From: Formosa sp. Hel1_33_131 | GTDB lineage: Bacteria > Bacteroidota > Bacteroidia > Flavobacteriales > Flavobacteriaceae | NCBI RefSeq assembly: GCF_001735745.1 | Contig: NZ_CP017260.1 | Location: 2,700,001-2,732,000, forward strand | DNA length: 32,000 nt | Direction: 5' to 3' | Part shown: piece by piece, positions 299 to 16,024 of the stretch | Layout: each line of letters opens with the position of its first letter | Position numbering within the stretch: the first letter of the stretch is position 1 | Program-made: the position numbers and the translations under genes | Notes under the pieces: generated by a model | What the model was told of the DNA's origin: nothing | Databases searched by the model: none | The model's input: the letters and a program-made list of their open reading frames with translations, nothing else

Positions 299-387
299 AT
301 GAGCCCCATGAAAAATAACATTCTTACAATAGCCCTTATTACTCTTTTAAGTTTTACAGGAATCGCACAGAACTCAACAGATCTAGT
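299..387 (+). pseudogene. Orphan 5' fragment of a secreted-protein gene (signal peptide only), cut off at the IS boundary
   Basis: ATG at 299 (or 308) encodes [30 protein letters not shown], a typical flavobacterial Sec signal peptide. The frame runs into the IS inverted repeat and stops at 401-403. No continuation exists beyond the IS: deleting the IS in silico gives GTT ATG TAA. Confidence 0.4.
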
Positions 388-1201
388 TGTAAGCTTCCCC
401 TAAAACCGCACTGTTTAAATTTCTACTATTATCAAATTTATTGTTTTTAATTTTAATGGAGCTAGCTCCATTAAAATTAATTTCTGCGTACTTTTTTGGT
501 GCTAATTTTCCTAGTGCATCATGGGGTCTTTTGTGGTTGTAATCATCCATCCAAATTTGTGTTTGCTCTCTAACCTGATCTAAATTTTCAAAAATATATT
601 TATTCAAAACACCTCTTCGATAACTTCCATTGAAGCGTTCTATAAAAGCATTTTGAGTCGGTTTGCCTGGTTGAATATATTTAAACTCTATAGAATGCAT
701 CAGACTCCAGTTGGCTGTTAAATGCGCTATAAATTCTGGTCCATTGTCCATACGAATACGTTTTGGTTTTCCATTTTTGTTAATTAAATGATTCAGCACC
801 CAAATGATGCGATTGCTTGTCAGAGAATAGTCGATCTCAATATGTAAGGCTTCTCTGTTATAGTCGTCAATAATGTTAAAAGCTCTAAAGCGTCTTTTAT
901 TCTCTAAAACATCGGTTACAAAATCCATGCTCCATGTATGATTAAGTACGCTAGGAACTTCTAAAGGCTCTTTAACCCGTGAGGGTAATCGTTTCTTCAC
1001 CTTTCTTCTAAGTGACAAGCCCATGGCTTTATAGACCCTATAAACCCGTTTATGATTCCACGTTTTTCCTTCTGAACGTAATCGGTCAAAGGCTTTCCAA
1101 AAACCTTCCTCTGAGTGGATTACTGCTTTTTCACTTAGTGCTGTCACTATCTCTGAATCATCCTTTGGTAATGGCTTGTAATAATATACACTTTTACTCA
1201 T
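383..1201 (-). CDS. IS3-family transposase OrfB (DDE integrase core), expressed as an OrfAB fusion by -1 frameshifting
   Basis: Carries the DDE triad context: [27 protein letters not shown]. The -1 frame is open from the slippery site at 1282-1288. The predicted fusion junction is ...EIIEKK|[35 protein letters not shown]. The stop codon (383-385) lies 3-5 nt outside the IS end. Confidence 0.9.
388..419. repeat. IS terminal inverted repeat (right end relative to the transposase)
   Basis: TGTAAGCTTCCCCTAAAACCGCACTGTTTAAA. The reverse complement of 1577-1608 is TGTAAGCTCCCCCTAAAACCGCACTGTTTAAA, one mismatch at position 9. Confidence 0.9.
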
Positions 1202-1275: not shown

Positions 1276-1542
1276 TTAGAGCTTTTTTTCTATGATCTCT
1301 TTTGCCATTTGATGATCCAGAGCTAAAGTGGCATACATCTGCTTGAGCTTGCGATTCTCATCCTCTAGCTGCTTGAGGCGTTTTAACTCCTTAGCGTTCA
1401 TTCCTGCATACTTGGAACGCCATTTGTAAAAACTGGCAGAACTAACCCCATACTCTCGAGTGATTTCTACAACGGTTTTACCTGTGTCAAACTCTTTTAA
1501 AATCGTAGCGATTTGCGTTGGACTAAATTTACTTCTTCTCAT
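1276..1542 (-). CDS. IS3-family transposase OrfA (HTH DNA-binding plus coiled-coil)
   Basis: 88 aa. [17 protein letters not shown]...[14 protein letters not shown] is the IS3/IS911 OrfA helix-turn-helix, followed by the L-x6-L heptad [16 protein letters not shown]. It ends ...EIIEKKL* across the slippery site. Confidence 0.9.
1282..1288 (-). promoter_or_regulatory. Programmed -1 ribosomal frameshift heptamer A_AAA_AAG
   Basis: The minus strand reads GAA AAA AAG CTC TAA in the orfA frame. The orfB frame is offset by -1, confirmed by coordinate arithmetic. An imperfect hairpin (1232-1251, GTAATGAG-cttg-CTCACTAC on the minus strand) lies about 30 nt downstream. Confidence 0.8.
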
Positions 1543-2296: not shown

Positions 2297-2364
2297 ACTG
2301 ACGCGTACAAAATTTTAATTACCAGATAAAATAAGGAAAACGCTGCACTATTTGTACAGAACTA

Positions 2365-3633
2365 TTAAATAGCTGAAATAGATTCAATCACGCCCAATGC
2401 TGCCCTTTCGCCAGAAATCATGGCGGCATTTAAGGACGCATTTAATTGCGTATCTCCAGCTAAAAAAAGTCCGTTTGTTAAACGCGTCTCAGAGGGCATC
2501 ATTTCATATTTCAAATCTTTTAACTTTGGCAGTGCCATCGGGATACTGTACAATTTAATGAAATTCATTGTTGTAATCCCACACAACTCTTTTAGCTCTG
2601 TTTGAACCGCTTCGATAAGGGCTTTGCTAGAAAGGTCTTGATCATCTATGACGGTCACTGACAACAGTTCATTCTTGGGTCTTATAGCACATTCTAAACT
2701 ACTGTTGTAAAAGATGTTATTTATAAAGGTTCCCGATTTAGGAATGAGCCCAATTAACTTTTTATCAATACCTCGTGTTTCCGTTTCAAAATACAAGGTC
2801 GTGCAGGATTTCCACTCTGTAGATTGATTTTTTAAATTAGGAATTAAACCACTCGCCTCAGTGGCAACAATTGTATAATCACTTTCTAATTTTGTATCAT
2901 CATCAAGCGTAATCTTTCCATCTTTCAACGCTGTTACTTTCGTGTTATATTTAAAAGTTGTACTCTTTAAATTGTTTAATAATTGTTTTGGAATCGCCTC
3001 AATACCCGCTTTTGGAACCGTTGCATCGCCTTCACCAAACATCTTATATACAAATTCAAACATTCTACTCGATGTTTCAAGTTGTGTTTCAAGAAAAATA
3101 CCGCTAAAAAAAGGTGTAAAAAAATCAGTGATGATATCCTTTGAAAAACCAAAATTTATCAAATAGTCTAAGGTCGATTGTTCTTTTTCAGAAAATATGT
3201 CAGACATCTTTTTGTTCTTTAACTTTTGGTTCAGTTTTAGAATTTTAAGTTTATCAGAAAAATTCCCGATTCCAGATAGAAGTGTTGGAAATAGTAACGA
3301 AAGATTTCTTAAAGGATCGCCTATTATTTTTTGGGCATTTGCCTTAAAAATAGAAGCGCCTGGTAAAAATTTCTGCAATTCTAAAGCCTCATAATCTAAA
3401 TGTTTTTGAACTGCTGGATAGGCTGTGAGCAACACTTGAAACCCATGGTCCAATTGATACCCATTTACAACATCTGTTTTAACACGACCTCCTACCCGAT
3501 CTGTTGATTCTATAATCACAGGATGGTAGCCATGATTTTCTAAAACTCTGGCAGCGATGAGTCCGCTTATGCCAGCTCCAATAATATGTATTTTATAATC
3601 TTTTTTGTGCATCATTTTTTTATCATCTGGCAT
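2365..3633 (-). CDS. FAD/NAD(P)-dependent oxidoreductase (amine-oxidase / phytoene-desaturase-like)
   Basis: N-terminal Rossmann motif [37 protein letters not shown] and C-terminal LFLAGD FAD motif. It overlaps the upstream gene by 11 nt. The alternative ATGs at 3615/3612 would remove the overlap. Confidence 0.8.
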
Positions 3634-5080
3634 TTACATGTGTTTGTAAAAGGCGTTTCATTTCCCCCTGCACAGCGGGATGCTTTTTATGTCCCCATAT
3701 TTTATCTCTTGCCAGCCGTGCACTCTCTTGCAAATCCACAATTGGAAGTGGATAATCCTCTCCAATGCTAACCCCACAAAACGTCTGCTCCATAGCGGAC
3801 ATATTCCAAGGTTCGTGAATGTATGCTACAGGAACATTACTCAATTCTGGAATCCATTTTTTGATAAAGGCACCTTCGGGGTCGTGCTCCTGAGAATTTT
3901 TCACAGGATTGTATAAACGTACCGTATTAATTCCCGTAGTGCCAGCTTGCATCTGAAACTGTGGATAGTGAATGCCCGGTTCATAATCTAAAAACTGTCG
4001 GGCCAAATGGTAAGTGCCATCTCGCCAATCTTGATCTAGATTCAACGTTAAAAAAGACACCACCATGGCACGCATCCTAAAATTAATCCAACCCGTATTT
4101 TCAACAGCACGCATACACGCATCGATTAATGGATACCCTGTGCTGCCCGTTTTCCAAGCTTTGATAAACGCTTCATTCTTCTGGTGTTCTAAAAGCTCAT
4201 ACCCTTTGTTAATACACTCCGTTTCATAACGGCACTCCACTTCAAATTTCTGAATAAAATGACAATGCCAATGAAGTCTGGTAAGCATCGCCGAAAAAGC
4301 CTTGCTGTTTCTGGTGCCGTTAGGATGCGTGCCAATAAAGTGAAACGCTTGTTTGATACTCATATTCCCCCAAGCGAAGTAAGGGGATAAGCGACTGCAA
4401 GACATCCTGCTTTCGGTTGGTTTTGAGATGTGTTTCTGATAATTAAACCCGCGTTGGTTGGTAAAGGACTTTATATACCGCCATGCATTTTGTTCCCCTG
4501 CTGGTTGGTACTGTTTCGGATAGTCTTTTAATTGAGTCTCTAATTTTTCAGGCAGTAAAAAGGAATGTTCTAAAGGCTCTTCTTTAGATACAGAATAGCT
4601 GTTTTGAAGTACCAGTTTGTGCATTGTAATGTGCCACTGCTTGTTCCAATCTTCTCTATTTTTAATACCTCTTAGAATACCATCCCGTTGCGACTCTTGC
4701 CAATCAATTTGATGTTGCTTACAGAAAATGGTGATTTGTTTGTCACGTTGCCAAGTCCCTTGAGTGCCACTTTCGCGATAGCTAAAAATGTTGTTTATAT
4801 CAAAGCTTTCTTCAAGTTGTTCAAATACGTCGATGGCTTCTCCATAAAACACCTCTACACTCCTATTGAAAGGCGCCAGCGTTTTATTTAAGGCTGCAAT
4901 AGAATGGTACACAAACTGCAAATGCCGTGGGCTTGTATCTGGATATTCAATTCTAGAAGGCTCAAATACATAGATGATTCGATATGGAATACCAGCACGC
5001 TCAGCCTTTAATAAAGGTTCGTGATCTTGCGATCGAAGGTCCCGTTTTAACCAAACAATATTTACAGTCTGTTTTTTCAA
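3623..5080 (-). CDS. Cryptochrome/photolyase family protein with canonical domain order
   Basis: N-terminal alpha/beta domain ([16 protein letters not shown]). FAD-binding domain motifs [59 protein letters not shown] and [26 protein letters not shown]. Subclass not determinable by eye. Confidence 0.85.
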
Positions 5081-6195
5081 TATGTAAGCTGTTTTTTACA
5101 TTTTTTCCAAAATGAAAAGAAGGACGGGAAATAGCCCTGAACCTCAAACATCCAATCTCTCGATTCTTCAATGCCATGGTAATGCTGGCTTAACGGATGT
5201 TCTTTAAAATAGATATTTGTAAGCTTATAATCTGTAACTAGATCCTTAAATTCTCCTACATAAACTTGAATCGTATCTATATTTTCTTTTGAGATGTTTA
5301 GAATAAAATCAATTGTTTTTTGAGAGACGGGATAGGCCTCAAAATGAGAGGGCTCTAATAGTAATATCCTATTGACTGAAATATCTTTTTTCCAAAGGGG
5401 ATCTAAGTTATAGAAATTATAGATGCAGGTTGGAAGTGTACCATCAATCAATAAAGTAGTTTGTTTTGGCAACGGAGTTTTCAACTCAATATCAGGAGTA
5501 TCTTTTAAAATCTCAGGGATTTTCATCGAAGCAAATGCTTCATAAGGTACATCTAAAAAGGTGTTTTTTTGGGCTGTAAAACAGTACTTATTAATATTCT
5601 CTTGATTGGCTACATACTTTTTGTTGGCATTCGCCCCAGAAACCCACTGCCAACTTAAGGCATTACTCGCCCAGTCGGCATCCAATAAATGGTAATACAT
5701 CCACTGTGCTGGAACTTTCCAATGACTTTGGCCCATATTACACGCCACAGCAGCAGTGTACATTCTCAAATGATTGTGCATATAGCCTGTTTTGTAAAGT
5801 GCTTCAATAGCATCGTCTAGCGCCTCAACACCCGTTAGGGAGTCTACAATAGATTTTGAAATTGAATTGTTAGAAACGGGGGTTTGAGGGTGTTTTAAAT
5901 CTTGATTGATGGCATCGCTTTTTGCAATCCAAACCTGTTGCCAATAATCTCTCCATGCCAATTCTTGAATAAATTTTTCAATTTGTGCCGGTTTATACCC
6001 TTTTTTTAAAACTTCAGATAGTATAAATTTAGTTGAAATAATCCCCCTTGAGATGTAGGGAGATAAGTGCGTGATCGCCCCATTTATATAGTTTCGAGTT
6101 GAACTGTATTTAACAGGATCAATAGCGCGAACACGCTGAAGGATTTCATCGTAAGCTAAGGGAAACATCGTATTTTCTTGGTTAAATAATTCCAT
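5077..6195 (-). CDS. Photolyase/cryptochrome homologue with apparently swapped domain order (FAD helical domain first, alpha/beta domain last)
   Basis: Residues ~40-190 carry the FAD-domain motifs [41 protein letters not shown] and [19 protein letters not shown]. Residues ~250-372 resemble the photolyase N-terminal alpha/beta domain and end in the F-x-x-F-W-K linker motif ([10 protein letters not shown]). ATGA overlap with the next gene. Confidence 0.75.
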
Positions 6196-6459: not shown

Positions 6460-7071
6460 ATGCCTTTTAAAAAATTACATTCTGATATTCGAGAGAAATT
6501 AGAATCTCTAAACATACAAACGCCAACGCCATTTCAGAGCAGCAGCATTCCCATTATTAAAAGTGGTGTGAATGTATATTGCACCGCTCCTAAAGACAGT
6601 GGTAAAACAACCACCCTTGTATTGACTACCTTACAAAAGTTAAAATGTGAGGCTGACGGAAATGCGCCTAGAGCCGTTGTTCTTGTAGAAAACAAGGAAC
6701 GGGCGATGGAATTATACGAAACGTTTTTAGCCTATACAAAATACAATTCTTTACGCGTTTATGTAGGGCATGAACAGCTGCATATAGACATTCAGAAATC
6801 GGAAATATTTGAGGGTACAGACATTCTTATTTCTACTCCCAAAACAATGAATAAGTTGTTCTTATTAAATGGTGTCAGCACTGCACAATTAAAAATAATC
6901 AGTATTGATGATGCGGAATTTCTTTCGCAACACTCCTCCTATTCGGCGATTATGTCGATTTCTCAGAGTATCCAAAAATGTCAATATGTCATTTACTCAG
7001 AAAAAATGACTAAAATGCTTGAGCGTTTTGAATCTTATTTTATGGAACGTTCAAAAATCGTTTCTTTTTAG
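6460..7071 (+). CDS. Stand-alone DEAD-box helicase domain-1-like protein with degenerate motifs
   Basis: 203 aa. It has a Q-motif-like TPFQ, Walker A APKDSGKT, a PTRELA-position KERAMEL, STPKT for TPGR and DDAE for DEAD. No RecA domain 2 is present. Confidence 0.65.
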   Translation: MPFKKLHSDIREKLESLNIQTPTPFQSSSIPIIKSGVNVYCTAPKDSGKTTTLVLTTLQKLKCEADGNAPRAVVLVENKERAMELYETFLAYTKYNSLRVYVGHEQLHIDIQKSEIFEGTDILISTPKTMNKLFLLNGVSTAQLKIISIDDAEFLSQHSSYSAIMSISQSIQKCQYVIYSEKMTKMLERFESYFMERSKIVSF

Positions 7072-7771: not shown

Positions 7772-8953
7772 TTACGCTAACAAATCATATTTGTTACTTG
7801 GAGGAAATAATAAATTTAAACTATTGTCTTTTAATTTAAATAAAGGTCCTTTTTCTGCGCCTCCACCAGTTGGAGTTCTTTTGATTAAATGATCTACTGT
7901 AATTATTCCTTGTTCTAAAAGTAAATCAAATTGTGAGATAATTGGTTTTCTTGTGTGTTCAACTAGTTTATATTGAAAATGTTCTTTGCCTCTTATTTTA
8001 ATACTATCAGCAGCGATCCAAAATGTTTCTTTATGTTTCTCTAATAGTCGTTGATGTAATTTTTCCAGAGTCCATACAACAAAATCACCAACTTCTTTTT
8101 TGTCCGAAGTTTCTATTAAATGGTTTATATCTGAATTAATTTTTAATGAGAGACCTTGTGAGTTGACTACAATAGTAGATAAAGTACAATACAATTTAAA
8201 AGCACTTCCTCTGCTATAACCGAACTCATTTAATATCTCTGTTGAATTTTTAAATTTGCTTAATGTCCAATCTGGTACTTGAGCAAATAAATTCTTCCGA
8301 TTCCCTTTTGAAGATCGATAAGATTTCAGTTCAATTCCTTTGTAATCTGGTAATTTAGAAGAATTAATATCTATTCCCAAGGCTGTTTCTAAAGTACGTC
8401 CAACAGATGTATCAGCATTAACCATTGAAGGAATTGGACCTTTCTTAGCAATTGTTGTTAATAAGCCTAGTAATTCATTCGCAATTACATTTTCATTATA
8501 ATTAATTTCTTGTACTAATTCTTTTAAGGGGTTAGAATTAACACCATTTATTAATTGGCTAACTGGCAGTTGAGTTACATTGATAATGTGAATTACACCA
8601 TCAAAACAAATTAATCCTAGAACATCATTTGGTTGTGTGTGTTTAGATATTTCTGAAAACCATATTCTTGGATCTCCTGTTTTTGTCTTAGGCCTGTATA
8701 ACGAAGTTTTGGATTTTAAAACAGAATTTACATCATAAATTAAAGCATCAATAATTATTTTATGATCAGGACCTTGAAGTTGTAAGCTATAATCGTGAAA
8801 GTTATTAGTTCTTAAATAATTCCTTACAGTTCCGGTTGCATCCATTATAGACTTCTTAAGTCCATTTTCAGTAGGTTCAATTAAAGTTAAGGAGATTGAG
8901 TTTTTAGTTAAAACCTTAAGCTTATCTTCTTCTTGGGGAGTTAATAATCTCAT
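7772..8953 (-). CDS. Putative type II restriction endonuclease: MutH/Sau3AI/MvaI-BcnI-like PD..ExK core in the C-terminal half, unassigned N-terminal domain
   Basis: Residues ~184-212 (GRTLETALGIDINSSKLPDYKGIELKSYR) match the MutH-family pattern G..lE..LG....s..PD...ELK(S/T). The start codon overlaps the methyltransferase stop codon (ATGA). Confidence 0.6.
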   Translation of the reverse strand: MRLLTPQEEDKLKVLTKNSISLTLIEPTENGLKKSIMDATGTVRNYLRTNNFHDYSLQLQGPDHKIIIDALIYDVNSVLKSKTSLYRPKTKTGDPRIWFSEISKHTQPNDVLGLICFDGVIHIINVTQLPVSQLINGVNSNPLKELVQEINYNENVIANELLGLLTTIAKKGPIPSMVNADTSVGRTLETALGIDINSSKLPDYKGIELKSYRSSKGNRKNLFAQVPDWTLSKFKNSTEILNEFGYSRGSAFKLYCTLSTIVVNSQGLSLKINSDINHLIETSDKKEVGDFVVWTLEKLHQRLLEKHKETFWIAADSIKIRGKEHFQYKLVEHTRKPIISQFDLLLEQGIITVDHLIKRTPTGGGAEKGPLFKLKDNSLNLLFPPSNKYDLLA

Positions 8954-11163
8954 TTAATGTGTTTCAAAATTTCAATTGCAACTGCTCTAGCCATTAATGG
9001 AGGCACTGCGTTTCCGACTAATGTATATTGGGGCAGTTCGGTTTTTCTATTATTTCCGCCCGTTGAACGTTTTCCTTGAAAAACGAATGAATCATCAAAT
9101 GATTGTAACCTTGCCATTTCCCTAACAGTTAATGCTCTTGGTGAGTTATAGTGAATGTAATCATCTGGAATAGTCATAACCGTAGGACTTTGATTCTCTG
9201 GTTTTAATACATTGTAATTTCTTTTATTAGACGATAAACCACATTCATTTAATTTATTTTGTGCTTTTTTATAATTTCCTTCTTTTAAAATTATATCAAG
9301 TCGTTTAATTACATCCTCTCCTTGGTTACTTGTTTTATGATTATGAAGTAGGTCATAAACTTTTTCTCCATTATTAAGAGCTAATTCACTTTTTACATAA
9401 AAAGGTTTGGTTGCTTTTTCAAATCGACCGTTTAGCCGACCTCTCTTACTCCATTCTGCAAAAGTTTTCCCTTTAGTTTTTATGAGTTTACCATCAATTG
9501 AACGAGCCTTAATTAGACCTTTCATTTTTTTAGCAGTTACATTATACTGTTTAGAAATATCTACTGACTGATATTGGTGAGCTTCTTGATTATTGCCAAT
9601 AAAATCTAAATCATAAAGCGCTTCGAAAACAGAAACCTTCTCTTCTTCCTTAACAGTAGCAGGAATCTCAGATATGAATTTTTGATCTTTTCTACACCCT
9701 ATAAATAAAACACGCTCTCTATTTTGTGGTACTCCATAATTTGATGAATTTGCTACAAATGGCGCTTCTATTTTATAAAGTCTTATATCACTGATAATTG
9801 TATCTAATTCATTGCTTTGTTCTTTGTCACAATAGGCACGAATCATTGTGAGACAATCATCAATATTTAGGACATATATTTTCAATGCTTGTATTATATC
9901 GTCACAAGATTTCTTAAAGTCTTTTACTACATTTAATCCATCAAATGCTTCTTCGACTTTATTGATTATTTCATTTGAATCAATATCCGTGAGGAATTGA
10001 GTGAAAGAATCTACAAAGAAATCGTTATCAATATTACAAAAATCCTTTTCACGAATAATATCTCGTTTAAGTTTTTCCCATTCTTTACTTCTAGCTAAAA
10101 TATTAAAACCGTGTCTGATCGTGCTAATTCTTTCATCCGTTTTACTCGTTTTGTAGTCAACAATATCTGGAGTTAACTTTCTGAACTTAGCATCAATTGT
10201 TCGTATATAAACTTCTTTCACTTCTTCAATTTTAGAATCCGTAAACTGTTCAATTTCAATTCTTTTAATCAAACAATCTAACAAGAAACCGTTATCTGTA
10301 TTAGTCGTTTTTAAAGATTTAATAAAAGAGGCTAAACGAGGGATTTCTTTAATATCAACAATGGAATTAATTTCTTTTAGAATTAGTTCTTTTATTTTCC
10401 CTTTTTCCTTTGTTAAAATTCCTTTTACATTCTCCATAATAAAGTACTTGGGCTGAAGTACTTTGATTACTCCCAAATAATGAGCAAATAAATCATCCTT
10501 TTTATCAAACTTCTTTCTTTTGCCTGCTAAACTAAAACTCTGACAAGGAGGGCCTCCACAAACTACGTCAACTTTTTTGCCTTTGGTTTTCGAAATTAAA
10601 TTATCCAAAAAATCAGGTTCTGTAATATCTTGACATAAAAAATCCGCATCCAATCCTAATTGATGATTGTATCTTACTATATGAGTTAATTCAGAGTTAT
10701 CATTTATATCATTTGCTACAAGAAAATCAAAGAATTTATTGTTATGCTCTGCTTGTAAAAAACCTTCACTAAAACCGCCCGCACCTGCAAATAAATCAAC
10801 AAACGTAAACGGTTTACCGTATAGAGGGATTTGTTCCCTTACAATGTTAACATTGTGATTCTCTTTGTAAGCTTTTACAAAACCATGTAACTTTGTTTTG
10901 ATTTCATTATTAGTATAACTTTTTTTATAGGAATTGTTTAGTAGTTCATCTGCCCTCTCCTTTAAATAATTCAAATAATGGTTAATTTCAGTAGATCTTT
11001 CTGAGTTTTGTTTTACAGTTTGAGTTTCCTTATCAAAATCTTGCCGTTTTATTTTTTCTCCAGTTGATAATTTAATTTGTTCAGAATTACAATTAATCCT
11101 TAAGTGAATTGGAGAGAATCCTTTTTTATTTGATTTATCGAGATAGAAGTTTATTGTAGCCAT
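8950..11163 (-). CDS. DNA (cytosine-5)-methyltransferase with an N-terminal integrase-type Arm DNA-binding-like domain and a large internal insertion
   Basis: C5-MTase motifs: I FVDLFAGAGGFSEGF (aa 121-135), IV GGPPCQSFS (aa 203-211), VI ENVKG (aa 244-248), VIII QNRER (aa 480-484), IX RALTVREMARLQSF, X GNAVPP. The N-terminus, MATINFYLDKSNKKGFSPIHLRINCNSEQIKLSTGEKIKRQDFDKETQTVK...EINHYLNYLKER, follows the Bacteroidota tyrosine-integrase Arm-domain pattern. Confidence 0.9.
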   Translation of the reverse strand: MATINFYLDKSNKKGFSPIHLRINCNSEQIKLSTGEKIKRQDFDKETQTVKQNSERSTEINHYLNYLKERADELLNNSYKKSYTNNEIKTKLHGFVKAYKENHNVNIVREQIPLYGKPFTFVDLFAGAGGFSEGFLQAEHNNKFFDFLVANDINDNSELTHIVRYNHQLGLDADFLCQDITEPDFLDNLISKTKGKKVDVVCGGPPCQSFSLAGKRKKFDKKDDLFAHYLGVIKVLQPKYFIMENVKGILTKEKGKIKELILKEINSIVDIKEIPRLASFIKSLKTTNTDNGFLLDCLIKRIEIEQFTDSKIEEVKEVYIRTIDAKFRKLTPDIVDYKTSKTDERISTIRHGFNILARSKEWEKLKRDIIREKDFCNIDNDFFVDSFTQFLTDIDSNEIINKVEEAFDGLNVVKDFKKSCDDIIQALKIYVLNIDDCLTMIRAYCDKEQSNELDTIISDIRLYKIEAPFVANSSNYGVPQNRERVLFIGCRKDQKFISEIPATVKEEEKVSVFEALYDLDFIGNNQEAHQYQSVDISKQYNVTAKKMKGLIKARSIDGKLIKTKGKTFAEWSKRGRLNGRFEKATKPFYVKSELALNNGEKVYDLLHNHKTSNQGEDVIKRLDIILKEGNYKKAQNKLNECGLSSNKRNYNVLKPENQSPTVMTIPDDYIHYNSPRALTVREMARLQSFDDSFVFQGKRSTGGNNRKTELPQYTLVGNAVPPLMARAVAIEILKHIK

Positions 11164-12495: not shown

Positions 12496-13371
12496 ATGCA
12501 TTTAGAAAACCCTTACAGCGATCGTTATGATCTGAAACGATTGGCAATTCACCATCCACAGTTACAAGAACACATTGTTTTAAACCCCTCAGGCGAAGAA
12601 ACGATTGACTTTAGTAATTCAGCCGCGGTCTATGAATTGAATAAAGCCATGCTTTTGGCCGACTTTAAAGTTGAGAAATATGAATTGCCAATGGGCTATC
12701 TCATTCCTCCTGTCCCAGGACGTTTAGAATATTTATTACATATACGTGAGTTTCTTTCAGAACAATTTAATATCGATAAAAACACCAAACTACGAGGGTT
12801 AGACATCGGATCTGGTGCGAATGGCATCTATTGTATTTTGGGATTACAACATTTTAATTGGACCATGGTAGGTGCTGAATGTGATGCCAATTCTGTAGAA
12901 ATTGCAAAGGCTAACATGCAACATACAAAGTCATTAAAAAATAAGATTGAAATTCGACATCAAGAAAATAAAAGTTTCCTTTTTAAGAATATAATTAAAA
13001 CGGATGAGCAATTTGATTTCACCGTTTGCAATCCCCCATTTCACACCTCTAAAGAAGAGGCGTTTAGAGGGTCTCAGAGAAAAATTAACAATTTAGGTCG
13101 TGAATTTGATAAAAAAGAAGTCGCTCTTAATTTTGAAGGTCAAGCCAACGAACTTTGGTGCAATGGTGGCGAAGCCCTTTTTATCAAACGATTGATAAAA
13201 GAAAGTACCGCGTTTAAAAATCAAGTGAAAGTCTTTTCTACACTGGTTTCAAAAACAGATAGCCTCTCTAGTATTGATAAACAGCTTAAAAAAGCTAAAG
13301 CGAATTCTTATGTGTTGCCAATGGATTTGGGCAATAAGAAAAGTCGTATTGTTCTCTGGTGGTTTGATTAG
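12496..13371 (+). CDS. rlmF: 23S rRNA (adenine1618-N6)-methyltransferase RlmF
   Basis: N-terminal NPYSDRYDLKRL...NPSGEETIDFSNSAAVYELNKAML...GYLIPPVPGRLEYLLHI, SAM motif LDIGSGANGIY and catalytic CNPPFH, colinear with E. coli RlmF/YbiN. Confidence 0.85.
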   Translation: MHLENPYSDRYDLKRLAIHHPQLQEHIVLNPSGEETIDFSNSAAVYELNKAMLLADFKVEKYELPMGYLIPPVPGRLEYLLHIREFLSEQFNIDKNTKLRGLDIGSGANGIYCILGLQHFNWTMVGAECDANSVEIAKANMQHTKSLKNKIEIRHQENKSFLFKNIIKTDEQFDFTVCNPPFHTSKEEAFRGSQRKINNLGREFDKKEVALNFEGQANELWCNGGEALFIKRLIKESTAFKNQVKVFSTLVSKTDSLSSIDKQLKKAKANSYVLPMDLGNKKSRIVLWWFD

Positions 13372-14687
13372 GTTTCTAAGACCGTTACCCGTACTTTTTT
13401 CTTTTTGAGGCGTGTATTATTTAATTTCTCTACCAAGTCCTCTGCGATCGACTTAGGCACTGCCACAAACGCACAATCTTGTTTTAACTCAATATTTCCG
13501 AGTTGATCCTTTGTAATATTCCCTTGTTTAAAAAAGAGTCCTGCAATATCCCCTTTTGAAATTTTGTCTTTTCGACCTCCAGAAATAAACAAAGTTTCCC
13601 AAAACTGTGGTTTACGAACCGACTGTTTAGAGATGTTAACGACTTTAGAATTATGAATGTACGCTGGTAAATCTTCAGAGTCTCCTTTCATTATATAAGC
13701 CGTTCCTTTAGAATCGACTCTAGCAGCACGCCCATTTCTGTGAATAAATTCTTCTTTGGCGCGAGGTACTTCGTAATGGATAATAAATTTCAACTCAGGA
13801 ATATCAATACCTCGAGAGGCTAGATCTGTCGCAATGAGAATCTGATTGGTGCCATTTCTAAACTTTATCAAAGAACGTTCTCTTTCTTTTTGTTCCATAC
13901 CTCCTACAAAACAACTGTGGTTGATCTTATTTTTATCTAAAAAACGACTCACGGAATCAACACTGTCTCTTAAATTACAGAATACAATCCCTGTTTGGTT
14001 GCCAAGGTGTCCTACTAAATCCAAAAGCGTTTGAGGTTTATTTTTAGACGGATAGACTACGGTTTTAATCTCCAGTTTAGAAACTACTTTTTCTTTCAAA
14101 TAATTGACAGTGGTGGGTTGATCCAAACGTACAAACCCAGGGATGTTGATACTTTGAGTGGCAGAGGTTAAAATCCGTTTGTTGATATGTGGCAACTGAT
14201 GGATAATTTCTTTCATTTCAGCTTCAAACCCATCTTCAAGCGACTTGTCAAACTCATCTAATATGAGCGTTTTTATGCTCGTTTTAGAAAAACGGTCGTT
14301 GCTAAAATGATCTGCAATTCTACCGGGCGTACCTATTAAAATAGCGGGTACGTGTTTGATTTCAATTTTATCTTTAGACATTGGACGTCCGCCATACACA
14401 GCATTCACTTTAAATCCAGAACCCATACTGCGGACTACTTGTTCAATCTGTATGGCCAGTTCTCTTGAAGGCACAATAATCAAGGCTTGCACCTCTTTAC
14501 TTTCGGGATCAAGTAATTTGATAAGTGGCAATAAAAAAGCCAATGTTTTACCTGTTCCTGTAGGTGATAATAAGATGGTATTGGTTGTTCTATCAATCAC
14601 CGAAATCGCTTCCTCTTGCATTGGATTCAATACATGAATATTTAATTTCGTTAAAATATCTTGTTGTTCTTTAATTGTATTTGCCAT
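13368..14687 (-). CDS. dbpA: DEAD-box RNA helicase with a C-terminal DbpA-type RNA-binding domain; motif II is DEFD
   Basis: Q motif PMQ, motif I SPTGTGKT, PSRELA, TPGR, motif II DEFD, SAT, HRNGRAAR. The C-terminus (ISGGRKDKISKGDIAGLF...VAVP...) matches the DbpA/YxiN RRM-like domain. Confidence 0.8.
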   Translation of the reverse strand: MANTIKEQQDILTKLNIHVLNPMQEEAISVIDRTTNTILLSPTGTGKTLAFLLPLIKLLDPESKEVQALIIVPSRELAIQIEQVVRSMGSGFKVNAVYGGRPMSKDKIEIKHVPAILIGTPGRIADHFSNDRFSKTSIKTLILDEFDKSLEDGFEAEMKEIIHQLPHINKRILTSATQSINIPGFVRLDQPTTVNYLKEKVVSKLEIKTVVYPSKNKPQTLLDLVGHLGNQTGIVFCNLRDSVDSVSRFLDKNKINHSCFVGGMEQKERERSLIKFRNGTNQILIATDLASRGIDIPELKFIIHYEVPRAKEEFIHRNGRAARVDSKGTAYIMKGDSEDLPAYIHNSKVVNISKQSVRKPQFWETLFISGGRKDKISKGDIAGLFFKQGNITKDQLGNIELKQDCAFVAVPKSIAEDLVEKLNNTRLKKKKVRVTVLET

Positions 14688-14692
14688 AATAA

Positions 14693-16024
14693 TTACTTCT
14701 TTTTTGAAACCTCAATTTTTGATTGCGCTGTACTTGTTTGCGCCAGATAATTTGCCAATACTTTTTCGATCAATTCCTCTTTGGTCAAATGGTGAAAAAT
14801 GGTACTTATATCTGCTCTGAATGTATCTGAAATCGTACGATTGGGTTTGGTCTTAAATATTTTTTTAGCCCACAACAATCCGTTGTTTTCTTCGATACTT
14901 TGGGCGTCTGCTTTTTTGAATTCATTAAATTTAATTCCCAATTCTTTTTCAAATTCAGGAAGGTCTTGAACTTCTTCTGCTTGTAATATGGTTAAGGACA
15001 ATCCCTTTGCGCCTGCTCTCGCTGTACGTCCACTTCTGTGTACATAGGCTTCAAAGGTGTCTGGCAAATGATAATTGACAACATAGGCGATTTCTTTCAC
15101 ATCAATACCACGAGCAGCTAAATCCGTTGCCACCAAAATATCAATAAAGCCTTCTCTAAATTGTCCCATGATCCGATCGCGAATGCCTTGAGACAAACTC
15201 CCATGAAGCGCACCAGATGAGAATTTATTAATGGCTAAATTTTTAGCTAATTTATTAACCGCTGCTTTTGTTTTACAAAATATAATGCTACGTTGTCCTT
15301 CTTTGCTACTTAAAAAATGCATCAAAACATTCAGTTTTTCAATAGGTTCCACCACCACATATTGATGATCGATGCCTTGATGACCAACCGTTTTCATGTC
15401 GGCTTCTATTTGCATCACATGTTTCGACATGTAATTTTGAACCAATTGTTTAATCGCACCTGAAAGTGTAGCGGTAAACAACAGCGTTCTGCGTGTTTTT
15501 GGAATTTCTTTAATAATAAGATCCAAATCTTGTTTTAAAGCACTCACCATTTCATCGGCTTCGTCCAATACTAAATACGATAACTGTTTAAGATTAATCG
15601 CGCCACGCTTCACTAAATCCACCAAACGTCCTGGGGTTGCCACCACAATATGGGTTGGCGATTTTAAACGTTCTATTTGAGGTCTTATAGGAATTCCACC
15701 ACAGACAGCTGCCACAGATATTTCTGGACTATGCACCGCATACGCAGTTAAGTTCGTATGAATTTGTTGTCCTAACTCACGGGTGGGTGCTAATATGACC
15801 ACTTGTACATGAGCGTTTTCTAGGTTGATTAACTGCAACAAAGGAATTCCAAAGGCCGCAGTTTTTCCTGTACCCGTTTTGGCAACAGCGACGATGTCTT
15901 CCGTTTGATTTAGAACCACCGGAATGGTTTTTACTTGAATGTCTGTAGGAACAGAAATTTGTAAATCGGCTAAGCCTTGTTGCAAGAGTATATTAATTCC
16001 TAAATCAGAAAACGGTTTTGACAT
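14693..16024 (-). CDS. DEAD-box ATP-dependent RNA helicase (RhlE/DeaD-like) with a C-terminal extension
   Basis: Q motif PTDIQ, AKTGTGKT, PTRELG, TPGR, DEADEM, TAT, ARGIDV, HRSGRTARAG. Confidence 0.88.
   Translation of the reverse strand: MSKPFSDLGINILLQQGLADLQISVPTDIQVKTIPVVLNQTEDIVAVAKTGTGKTAAFGIPLLQLINLENAHVQVVILAPTRELGQQIHTNLTAYAVHSPEISVAAVCGGIPIRPQIERLKSPTHIVVATPGRLVDLVKRGAINLKQLSYLVLDEADEMVSALKQDLDLIIKEIPKTRRTLLFTATLSGAIKQLVQNYMSKHVMQIEADMKTVGHQGIDHQYVVVEPIEKLNVLMHFLSSKEGQRSIIFCKTKAAVNKLAKNLAINKFSSGALHGSLSQGIRDRIMGQFREGFIDILVATDLAARGIDVKEIAYVVNYHLPDTFEAYVHRSGRTARAGAKGLSLTILQAEEVQDLPEFEKELGIKFNEFKKADAQSIEENNGLLWAKKIFKTKPNRTISDTFRADISTIFHHLTKEELIEKVLANYLAQTSTAQSKIEVSKKK

Follow-up and report, generated by a model that had tools for sequence, protein, structure and literature searches.

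A probable NewPHL/SPL-type photolyase with reversed domain order and a reduced alpha/beta-like domain in Formosa sp. Hel1_33_131

The gene at 5077–6195 of the window (the whole 32,000-nucleotide stretch of DNA analysed here) most probably belongs to the NewPHL/SPL class of the photolyase/cryptochrome superfamily (CPF), Bacteroidota subgroup ‘Ba’, and encodes a permuted two-domain flavoprotein; we give this reading a probability of roughly 85%. The tie to the characterised members A8LJA9, M7YZC8, and CmSPL is indirect, through shared features; the published clustering of NewPHL and SPL relied on SSN edges below 1e-70 and a monophyletic SPL clade. The class itself is already known. Emmerich et al. 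2020 (PMC7736829) reported NewPHL with an ‘inverted topology’, Xu et al. 2021 (PMC8476157) reported SPL, including subgroup ‘Ba’, and Haney et al. 2022 (PMC9426592) described the reverse-order Phr4/5/6 and named the Z-domain as an atypical short photolyase domain. The initial annotation had proposed a permuted CPF fold and knew of no such protein having been described; the permutation stands, in the form of two swapped blocks of homology, and the claim of novelty falls to these three reports. Our sole and modest addition to the literature is that the Z-domain, or ‘C-terminal extension’, appears to be truly homologous to the canonical alpha/beta domain as far as the FTPF motif, a view that rests on profile–profile comparison, a chain of intermediate sequences, and controls.

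Table 1. Features of the locus, with positions in the window.
Feature	Positions	Strand	Basis
Probable NewPHL/SPL-type photolyase CDS, complete	5077..6195	(-)	372 aa + TGA stop; ORF listing, homologue searches
All-helical FAD-binding/catalytic domain, aa ~10-215	5551..6168	(-)	hhalign, residue mapping, Pfam PF03441
Connector between catalytic and C-terminal domains, aa ~216-253	5437..5550	(-)	low conservation, many indels in alignment A3
Z-domain, reduced alpha/beta (photolyase N-domain-like), aa ~254-350	5146..5436	(-)	AF2, hhalign
C-terminal helix with FTPF-type motif, aa 353-372 (motif aa 353-364)	5080..5139	(-)	conservation and alignment
Normally ordered CPF, NewCRY/DASH-like type, downstream gene	3623..5080	(-)	Pfam, active-site residues, junction
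Amine-oxidase-like FAD oxidoreductase, third gene of apparent operon	2365..3633	(-)	PF01593 E 8e-37
Terminator-like hairpin, just past third gene	2343..2359	(-)	consensus match only

The reading frame opens with ATG, and the motifs first quoted from its translation were all present (aa 44–54, 80–89, 127–146, 170–187, 256–270, and 353–364). Homologue searches returned thousands of full-length homologues of approximately 360–390 aa, and a relative of the protein is encoded in 583 of 600 candidate stretches from species genomes, that is, in at least 583 species genomes, mostly of Bacteroidota. Given these numbers, the frame is neither a chance one nor the product of a split gene, as the initial annotation had also held, and its phylogenetic distribution is that of a large conserved family. 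Carriers in the species-genome survey were found in Bacteroidota, Balneolaceae, and Cyclobacteriaceae, with 53–56% identity for the Cyclobacteriaceae homologues. For an alphaproteobacterial homologue of 406 aa, the phmmer match (E 1e-29) was confined to the catalytic domain.

That the FAD-domain motifs come first was readily confirmed. Pfam places FAD_binding_7 (PF03441) at aa 75–195 (E 1.3e-21, profile positions 1–126 of 203), in agreement with the published NewPHL ranges of 71–78 to 196–212 (PMC7736829), and finds no other significant family in the protein and nothing N-terminal of PF03441; the same family was matched in 62 of 62 diverse Bacteroidota-type relatives. With hhalign, aa 10–195 align to residues 200–397 of E. 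coli Phr at a probability of 99.9%, while matches to PDB sequences span aa 29–193 only. Residue mapping shows that all five positions of the CPD pocket are kept (E78, W81, N141, M145, and W184, corresponding to E. coli E274, W277, N341, M345, and W384), as are the FAD residues R144, D172, and N178 (E. coli R344, D372, and N378). No variation was seen at these residues in 59 close homologues, and the 62 diverse ones largely conserve them, with an E274Q substitution (E. coli numbering) in 14 of the latter. A tryptophan dyad, W182 and W159 (E. coli W382 and W359), is conserved, and the third tryptophan, W306, is absent, its position falling in an unaligned gap. This pattern, in which the CPD pocket and R344/D372/N378 are kept, the tryptophans form a dyad, and W306 is missing, is the one reported for NewPHL and SPL. 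The alignment of the 62 diverse relatives (A3) holds no conserved cysteine column, which fits subgroup Ba without an Fe–S cluster; the four Fe–S cysteines are missing from subgroups A, Ba, and Be (PMC8476157), and subgroup-C-like relatives show a CxxC...C pattern. In the full AlphaFold2 (AF2) model, the FAD domain is of low confidence (pLDDT 36–66 across aa ~130–200), and a Foldseek search with that model was uninformative because this domain is poorly modelled.

Comparison of full-length profiles supports the protein being circularly permuted relative to canonical photolyases. Two collinear blocks match E. coli Phr in swapped order: the block just described (E 3e-31) and a second one in which aa 275–370 correspond to residues 32–162 (P 0.002). 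The canonical CPF order, with the alpha/beta domain at the N-terminus, a long linker, and then the FAD domain, is thus reversed. As expected of a circular permutant, the profiles indicate that both modules are homologous, that each is collinear within its block, and that the new termini lie inside the old linker.

The second module needs the closer argument. The canonical profile used for it was a broad one, built from E. coli and plasmid-borne photolyases, and against such N-domains the Z-domain profile scored a probability of 76–79% (E 2.2e-5). The real score of 36.4 compares with 12.8 +/- 2.3 (maximum 21.6) in a block-shuffle null, in which 0 of 150 shuffles reached the real score, and with 13.7 for a reversed template and 16.4 for the FAD domain. 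Among 54 family profiles from the neighbourhood, the best non-CPF score was 16.7. With a narrow profile made from NewCRY only, the right region came as the second match (P 0.06). Intermediate sequences offer another route. Matched to C-terminal domains from other subgroups, the Z-domain gives 98.5% and 96.9%; it reaches the C-terminal domain of cyanobacterial-type relatives at E 1.3e-10, and the cyanobacterial-type Z-domain in turn reaches canonical N-domains at 97.5% and E 7e-12 (E. coli aa 5–165), a match that spans the canonical domain in full, strand 1 and helix 1 included. On these profile data, the C-terminal ~120 aa appear to be a divergent, stripped-down homologue of the alpha/beta domain of photolyases, closed by an FTPF-type motif, much as the initial annotation had judged by resemblance.

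The AF2 model is consistent with this layout. It gives a confident five-stranded alpha/beta domain (pLDDT mostly >85; pTM 0.77), with strands at aa ~256–260, 275–280, 310–313, 328–331, and 342–344 and without the canonical domain's helices alpha1 and alpha4; the connector before it has no regular secondary structure beyond aa ~231. The linker motif noted earlier at the chain end is indeed found near the C-terminus, where it aligns with E. coli YKVFTPFKNAW in hhalign. Within its SFFxFW sequence, F359 and W363 show conservation of 90% or more among the 62 diverse relatives. By this alignment, the motif appears to correspond to the canonical (Y)xVFTPFxxxW with which the interdomain linker begins; in published NewPHLs its equivalent is the ‘GFF motif plus conserved Trp’, and the alphaproteobacterial member has AGFFKVKK at its position.

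By homology with characterised relatives, the protein is likely an antenna-less FAD photolyase that repairs CPDs in single-stranded DNA. Both the specificity for single-stranded DNA and the absence of an antenna come from two alphaproteobacterial enzymes, DsNewPHL and MmNewPHL (PMC7736829); RfSPL contributes CPD repair only. FAD in the helical domain would be photoreduced to FADH- through the two-tryptophan chain W182 -> W159. Blue or near-UV light would then excite FADH-, which would give an electron to a CPD held by E78, W81, N141, M145, and W184, and the dimer would split. The Z-domain may mainly close off the flavin's pyrimidine edge. Class relatives lack the canonical linker and its phosphate-binding loop, and the two characterised ones lack an antenna chromophore (PMC7736829); the substrate is therefore probably single-stranded DNA only.

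The gene stands first in an apparent operon. Its stop codon overlaps the TTG start of the downstream gene (aTTGA), which had been described as a complete and normally ordered CPF member and is one, with PF00875 at aa 8–131 preceding PF03441 at aa 266–461. In this NewCRY-type protein, the active-site residues are replaced (E274R, N341F, M345A, W384M, and N378H). The third gene overlaps the second by 11 nt, and the three, the NewPHL gene, the NewCRY-type gene without a repair site, and the FAD oxidoreductase gene, are probably co-transcribed. A sigma-70 promoter scan stayed at background level, the sigma-70 consensus being unsuited to Bacteroidota. Adjacency of NewPHL and NewCRY-type genes recurs in 17 of 80 related loci, and an FeS-BCP gene lies at most 8 kb away in 45 of the 80. 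The distribution of the family and its linkage to FeS-BCP agree with those given by Xu et al. (PMC8476157) for subgroup Ba and the SPL-FeS-BCP operon.

Could the C-terminal part instead be unrelated to photolyases? Xu et al. (PMC8476157) treat it as a non-homologous ‘extension’ and deny homology to the alpha/beta domain, Emmerich et al. (PMC7736829) found that its order of secondary structures does not fit a Rossmann fold and left homology open, and Haney et al. (PMC9426592) only imply alpha/beta homology. The protein would then be a FAD-domain-only photolyase with an added extension, its likeness to the alpha/beta domain a generic Rossmann-like convergence. Several searches fit that account. 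The initial annotation looked to hmmscan for both domains, and PF03441 appeared but PF00875 did not, either in the protein or in any of the 62 diverse Bacteroidota-type relatives (0/62); a Pfam scan restricted to the last 161 aa, with E allowed to reach 10, returned no family. HMMER searches of PDB sequences with the Z-domain profiles A4 and A5 gave chance matches only, with no photolyase among them, and Foldseek with the Z-domain model gave weak HUP-class matches headed by PPAT and USP, a class II photolyase coming tenth (E 0.15), an outcome that supports a fold class (HUP-type alpha/beta) and not specific homology. However, the profile–profile match runs collinearly from strand 2 as far as the FTPF motif, and its score far exceeds shuffled, reversed, and real-family backgrounds, including an SDR-type Rossmann family at 13.5, and the chain through subgroup-C-type Z-domains extends over the entire canonical domain. 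In one cyanobacterial-type protein (P0259), Pfam itself places PF00875 after PF03441 (E 0.002). We therefore consider an unrelated extension very improbable.

Another alternative concerns function: the protein would act as a photoreceptor or regulator of cryptochrome-like type instead of repairing DNA, in partnership with the product of the NewCRY-type gene directly downstream. Translational coupling to a CPF gene without a repair site, and the recurrence of that arrangement, would suit it, and Xu et al. (PMC8476157) raised a signalling role for SPL C-terminal extensions. Yet the whole CPD pocket and the N378 equivalent are conserved across the 62 diverse members while the neighbour has lost them, and characterised class members repair CPDs, which makes a photoreceptor improbable. 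A gene lying directly upstream of another CPF gene might be suspected of being an artefact of assembly or annotation, or two photolyase gene fragments fused and decaying, and in one database relative (P0266) a frameshift does seem to have fused the gene with the downstream one. Nevertheless, hundreds of genomes, and metagenomic proteins in the thousands, keep the same architecture of ~372 aa (47–87% identity) together with its conserved catalytic residues. We reject the artefact, which these conservation data effectively refute.

With the NewPHL/SPL reading retained, homology of the Z-domain matters for placing the class within the superfamily, as ancestral or as derived. Both founding papers (PMC7736829 and PMC8476157) proposed an ‘ancestral minimal photolyase’. 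Taking the Z-domain as a degenerate alpha/beta domain and the FTPF motif as the exact end of the chain, NewPHL/SPL as a whole would have been derived by circular permutation from an ordinary photolyase with two domains and would not be ancestral, a proposal we hold tentatively, at slightly less than an even chance. Such a permutant could have arisen by fission into Phr4/Phr5-like halves, or by tandem duplication, followed by re-fusion. Within the resulting series, reduction would have gone furthest in the Bacteroidota branch. This branch offers a naturally minimised alpha/beta domain that could serve structure–function work. For annotation, ‘NewPHL/SPL-type photolyase with reversed domain order’ is a better name than the less informative ‘deoxyribodipyrimidine photo-lyase’ or ‘FAD-binding domain-containing protein’.

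Among known systems, the protein shares catalytic residues, the FAD pocket, and both modules with class I CPD photolyase (E. coli Phr, PDB 1DNP) and Cry-DASH, and with Cry-DASH also the proposed single-strand-specific role. It departs from them in its reversed order, in the lack of ~75 C-terminal residues, the long linker, and W306, and in an antenna site that is not evident. Phr6 and the split pair Phr4 + Phr5 of Cyanobium and marine Synechococcus likewise put the FAD domain before the alpha/beta domain, but they keep Fe–S cysteines and a fuller alpha/beta domain with helix alpha1, which Pfam can recognise in P0259; the 372-aa protein has neither. The Z-domain of the latter matches the C-terminal domain of such proteins at E 1e-10. 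Like SPL of subgroup ‘Ba’ (for example, that of Cyclobacterium marinum), it has a distribution in Bacteroidota and Balneolaceae, lacks the four-cysteine Fe–S motif, and has relatives often linked to an FeS-BCP (6-4) photolyase gene; unlike the SPL-FeS-BCP operon, the window holds NewCRY-type and amine-oxidase-like genes in place of FeS-BCP. Another close system is NewPHL from Dinoroseobacter shibae (DsNewPHL) and Methylobacterium mesophilicum (MmNewPHL). The Bacteroidota protein is shorter (372 vs 405 aa), and its Z-domain is more reduced and can be aligned with that of the alphaproteobacterial member by profile–profile comparison only, not by phmmer. It shares with NewPHL a conserved CPD pocket, a tryptophan dyad in place of a triad, the absence of the canonical linker, an N-terminal FAD/catalytic domain with PF03441 at aa ~75–200, and a C-terminal Z-domain (~100–150 aa in the class; here aa 254–372) with the conserved tryptophan and G/S-F-F motif.

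The 372-aa open reading frame (ORF) taken from the ORF listing of the window begins with ATG and is genuine and conserved. Marine metagenomes and Flavobacteriaceae genomes are rich in homologues of 360-390 aa with 71-87% identity. In a 50%-identity representative library, 199 clusters matched with E < 1e-30, many of them aligning over the full length at 33-56% identity, and relatives turned up in at least 583 of 600 candidate stretches when one genome was scanned per species. Hosts among the relatives listed are mainly Bacteroidota (Flavobacteriaceae, Chitinophagaceae, Cyclobacteriaceae, Sphingobacteriia) and Balneolaceae, with a few from other phyla. The motifs quoted in the initial annotation were all found in the translated ORF where it had placed them.

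The N-terminal part is a photolyase catalytic domain. Pfam found PF03441 (FAD_binding_7) at aa 75-195 (E 1.3e-21) and no other significant domain; the hit takes in positions 1-126 of the 203 in the profile and only the first two thirds of the FAD domain, counted from its N-terminus. Matches to NCBIfam photolyase and cryptochrome models were confined to aa ~7-206 (model positions ~197-415), and those to PDB sequences to aa ~29-193. For profile-profile comparison, 62 diverse family members were set against a canonical profile of 16 photolyases, comprising E. coli Phr, 14 plasmid-borne proteins of bacterial and haloarchaeal origin, and a class-I-like protein encoded at a related Bacteroidota locus. 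Residues 10-195 correspond to E. coli Phr 200-397 (probability 99.9%, E 3e-31). In this alignment, the CPD-pocket residues E274, W277, N341, M345, and W384 (literature numbering) become E78, W81, N141, M145, and W184, and the FAD residues R344, D372, and N378 become R144, D172, and N178. In the electron-transfer chain, the proximal tryptophan W382 and the middle one, W359, have W182 and W159 as counterparts, and the distal W306 has no equivalent. At the mapped positions, 59 close homologues show no variation and the 62 diverse ones almost none.

The initial annotation had read the C-terminal region as the alpha/beta domain of photolyases and proposed hmmscan with PF00875 (DNA_photolyase) as a check. 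This search matched none of the 62 relatives and nothing in the C-terminal region of the window protein; a Pfam scan of that region alone returned no family, and an HMMER profile of this Z-domain found no photolyase among PDB sequences. We consider profile-profile comparison decisive in identifying the region, at the level of sequence, as an alpha/beta domain homologue. The Z-domain profile (57 sequences) aligned with the canonical N-domain over 97-99 collinear columns (probability 76-79%, E 1.6-2.2e-5), starting at strand 2 with RILLLEP opposite LALYIATP, continuing through an S-x-K/R-x-x-F helix and strands 3 and 4, and ending with SFFSFWKK opposite VFTPFKNAW. The real score, 36.4, was reached by none of 150 block-shuffled templates (12.8 +/- 2.3, maximum 21.6); reversing the template gave 13.7, and the canonical FAD domain gave 16.4. 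For 54 real family profiles from neighbourhoods of related loci, the top value outside the photolyase/cryptochrome family (CPF) was 16.7, with an SDR-type Rossmann family at 13.5.

In more distant family members, which are 400-445 aa long, only the catalytic domain matches the query. The C-terminal domains of two such subgroups are nevertheless homologous to the Z-domain in profile-profile comparison (98.5%, E 3.5e-15; 96.9%, E 1.3e-10). The C-terminal domain of the subgroup with Fe-S-type cysteines reads VWVHxExLSPxSPAL...FVFD...SLKRxxFIxECL and aligns with the entire canonical N-domain (97.5%, E 7e-12), covering E. coli aa 5-165 with both strand 1 and helix alpha1. Five database relatives (P0232, P0235, P0259, P0264, and P0270) combine Fe-S-type cysteines with a much fuller C-terminal alpha/beta domain. 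By sequence, they bridge the Z-domain and the N-domains of canonical photolyases; in P0259, which belongs to this subgroup, Pfam places PF00875 C-terminal to PF03441 (E 0.002).

The full-length AlphaFold2 model (mean pLDDT 74.8, pTM 0.77; built without Met1, so that its numbering is the protein numbering minus one) renders the catalytic domain poorly and the C-terminal domain confidently, and the latter kept its confidence when folded alone (mean pLDDT 83). It is modelled as a five-stranded alpha/beta unit that lacks helices alpha1 and alpha4 of the canonical N-domain. Foldseek placed the isolated model only in the general HUP-type class, where PPAT and universal stress proteins led the list (E 0.01-0.1); the tenth hit was a class II photolyase (E 0.15).

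With full-length profiles, the best alignment paired query 10-195 with Phr 200-397, and the second-best paired query 275-370 with E. coli Phr 32-162 (P 0.002). Such a pattern, in which two blocks are each collinear but have changed places, is what marks a circular permutation. Both new chain ends lie within the old interdomain linker, directly past the FTPF motif. For most of that linker, and for the last ~75 residues of a canonical photolyase, the window protein has no equivalent. The permuted CPF fold proposed initially is thus supported by profile-profile evidence, not by hmmscan.

The accompanying belief that no permuted CPF protein had been described was mistaken, as this architecture is already known from three papers (PMC7736829, PMC8476157, PMC9426592). 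Emmerich et al. 2020 defined, under the name NewPHL, a CPF subfamily of bacteria whose topology is "inverted", with its catalytic domain at the N-terminus, conserved CPD-site residues, a Trp dyad, no phosphate-binding linker loop, and a C-terminal Z-domain of ~150 aa bearing one conserved Trp and a GFF motif (PMC7736829). Two alphaproteobacterial NewPHLs bound FAD as sole cofactor and repaired CPDs in ssDNA, not dsDNA (PMC7736829). Xu et al. 2021 described the same class as SPL, including a Bacteroidetes subgroup "Ba" (representative, Cyclobacterium marinum SPL) without Fe-S cysteines and often sharing an operon with an FeS-BCP gene (PMC8476157).

Features of the window and of the 372-aa protein
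Feature	Position	Strand	Remark
IS3-family transposase orfB	383-1201	-	near photolyase cluster
IS3-family transposase orfA	1276-1542	-	near photolyase cluster
Terminator-like hairpin	2343-2359	-	3' of amine-oxidase-like gene
Amine-oxidase-like FAD oxidoreductase	2365-3633	-	third gene; 11-nt overlap with NewCRY-type gene
NewCRY-type gene	3623-5080	-	PF00875 then PF03441 (Pfam)
NewPHL-type ORF	5077-6195	-	372 aa
DEAD-domain ORF	6460-7071	+	203 aa; divergent from photolyase operon
Restriction endonuclease and methyltransferase genes	7772-11163	-	overlapping
Two complete DEAD-box helicases	within 13368-16024		
Z-domain strands (AlphaFold2)	aa ~256-260, 275-280, 310-313, 328-331, 342-344		protein numbering
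C-terminal domain helices (AlphaFold2)	behind strands 2 and 3; last helix aa 359-368		protein numbering

The next gene, which encodes a normally ordered CPF protein, starts with a TTG that shares bases with the stop codon of NewPHL (aTTGA). Its product has lost CPD-site and key flavin-environment residues (E274R, N341F, M345A, W384M, N378H, and W382F in E. coli numbering), losses that are invariant in 20 homologues. It matches "NewCRY", an uncharacterised bacterial group of Emmerich et al., and probably also the "DASH-like" group of Xu et al. In one 405-aa database relative (P0266), a strong canonical PF00875 (E 1e-21) and a tail that looks frameshifted come after the NewPHL catalytic domain; the protein probably owes its form to a gene call that joined a NewPHL gene to the NewCRY-type gene downstream, not to natural variation. 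The packing is operon-like, and the overlap of the third gene together with the hairpin behind it suggests a three-gene light/UV-stress operon. Among 80 related loci, the NewCRY-type gene lies directly downstream of NewPHL in 17, the amine-oxidase-like gene accompanies it in just two, and 45 have a gene for an FeS-BCP (6-4) photolyase no more than 8 kb away. The order in Zobellia and Gillisia (loci L004 and L005, 8001-12815) is NewPHL, NewCRY, a 208-aa protein, and FeS-BCP (6-4) photolyase. Because the last two genes are absent from the window and a transposase is close by, the cluster may have been rearranged here. Elsewhere in the window, the match of the 203-aa ORF to DEAD-box helicases is confined to their first RecA-like (DEAD) domain; the ORF has no Helicase_C domain and may represent half a helicase, either truncated or stand-alone. 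The gene of a restriction endonuclease of the MvaI/BcnI family overlaps that of a 737-aa C-5 cytosine methyltransferase, in which an Arm-type DNA-binding domain sits at the N-terminus and a long insertion separates the methylase halves.

By analogy with published relatives, the window protein would bind FAD, photoreduce it via W182 and W159, and split CPDs driven by light; it would be specific for ssDNA and carry no antenna, with the Z-domain sealing the flavin. If the protein is of the NewPHL/SPL type, ssDNA-specific CPD repair is quite likely its physiological activity.

Published opinion on the Z-domain varies. Emmerich et al. found no fit to the Rossmann fold in their text, noted a "striking similarity" to the antenna-binding domain in a figure legend, and raised early "domain swapping" as an alternative in their discussion (PMC7736829); Xu et al. 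held that SPLs lack an alpha/beta domain homologue (PMC8476157). Haney et al. 2022 described Phr4 and Phr5, and the fused Phr6, as a FAD domain followed by a "DNA photolyase domain", "in the reverse domain order", and the Z-domain of Phr7 (NewPHL) as "an atypical, short photolyase domain" (PMC9426592). Our analysis adds to this literature by showing more cleanly that the Z-domain is truly an alpha/beta photolyase domain, in reduced form and with the FTPF motif at its end, a result that counts somewhat against the published view of the class as an ancestral minimal photolyase. Compared through published descriptions, the window protein agrees with NewPHL/SPL subgroup Ba in all sequence-level features tested, and we put the probability that it is a permuted photolyase of this type at about 0.85.
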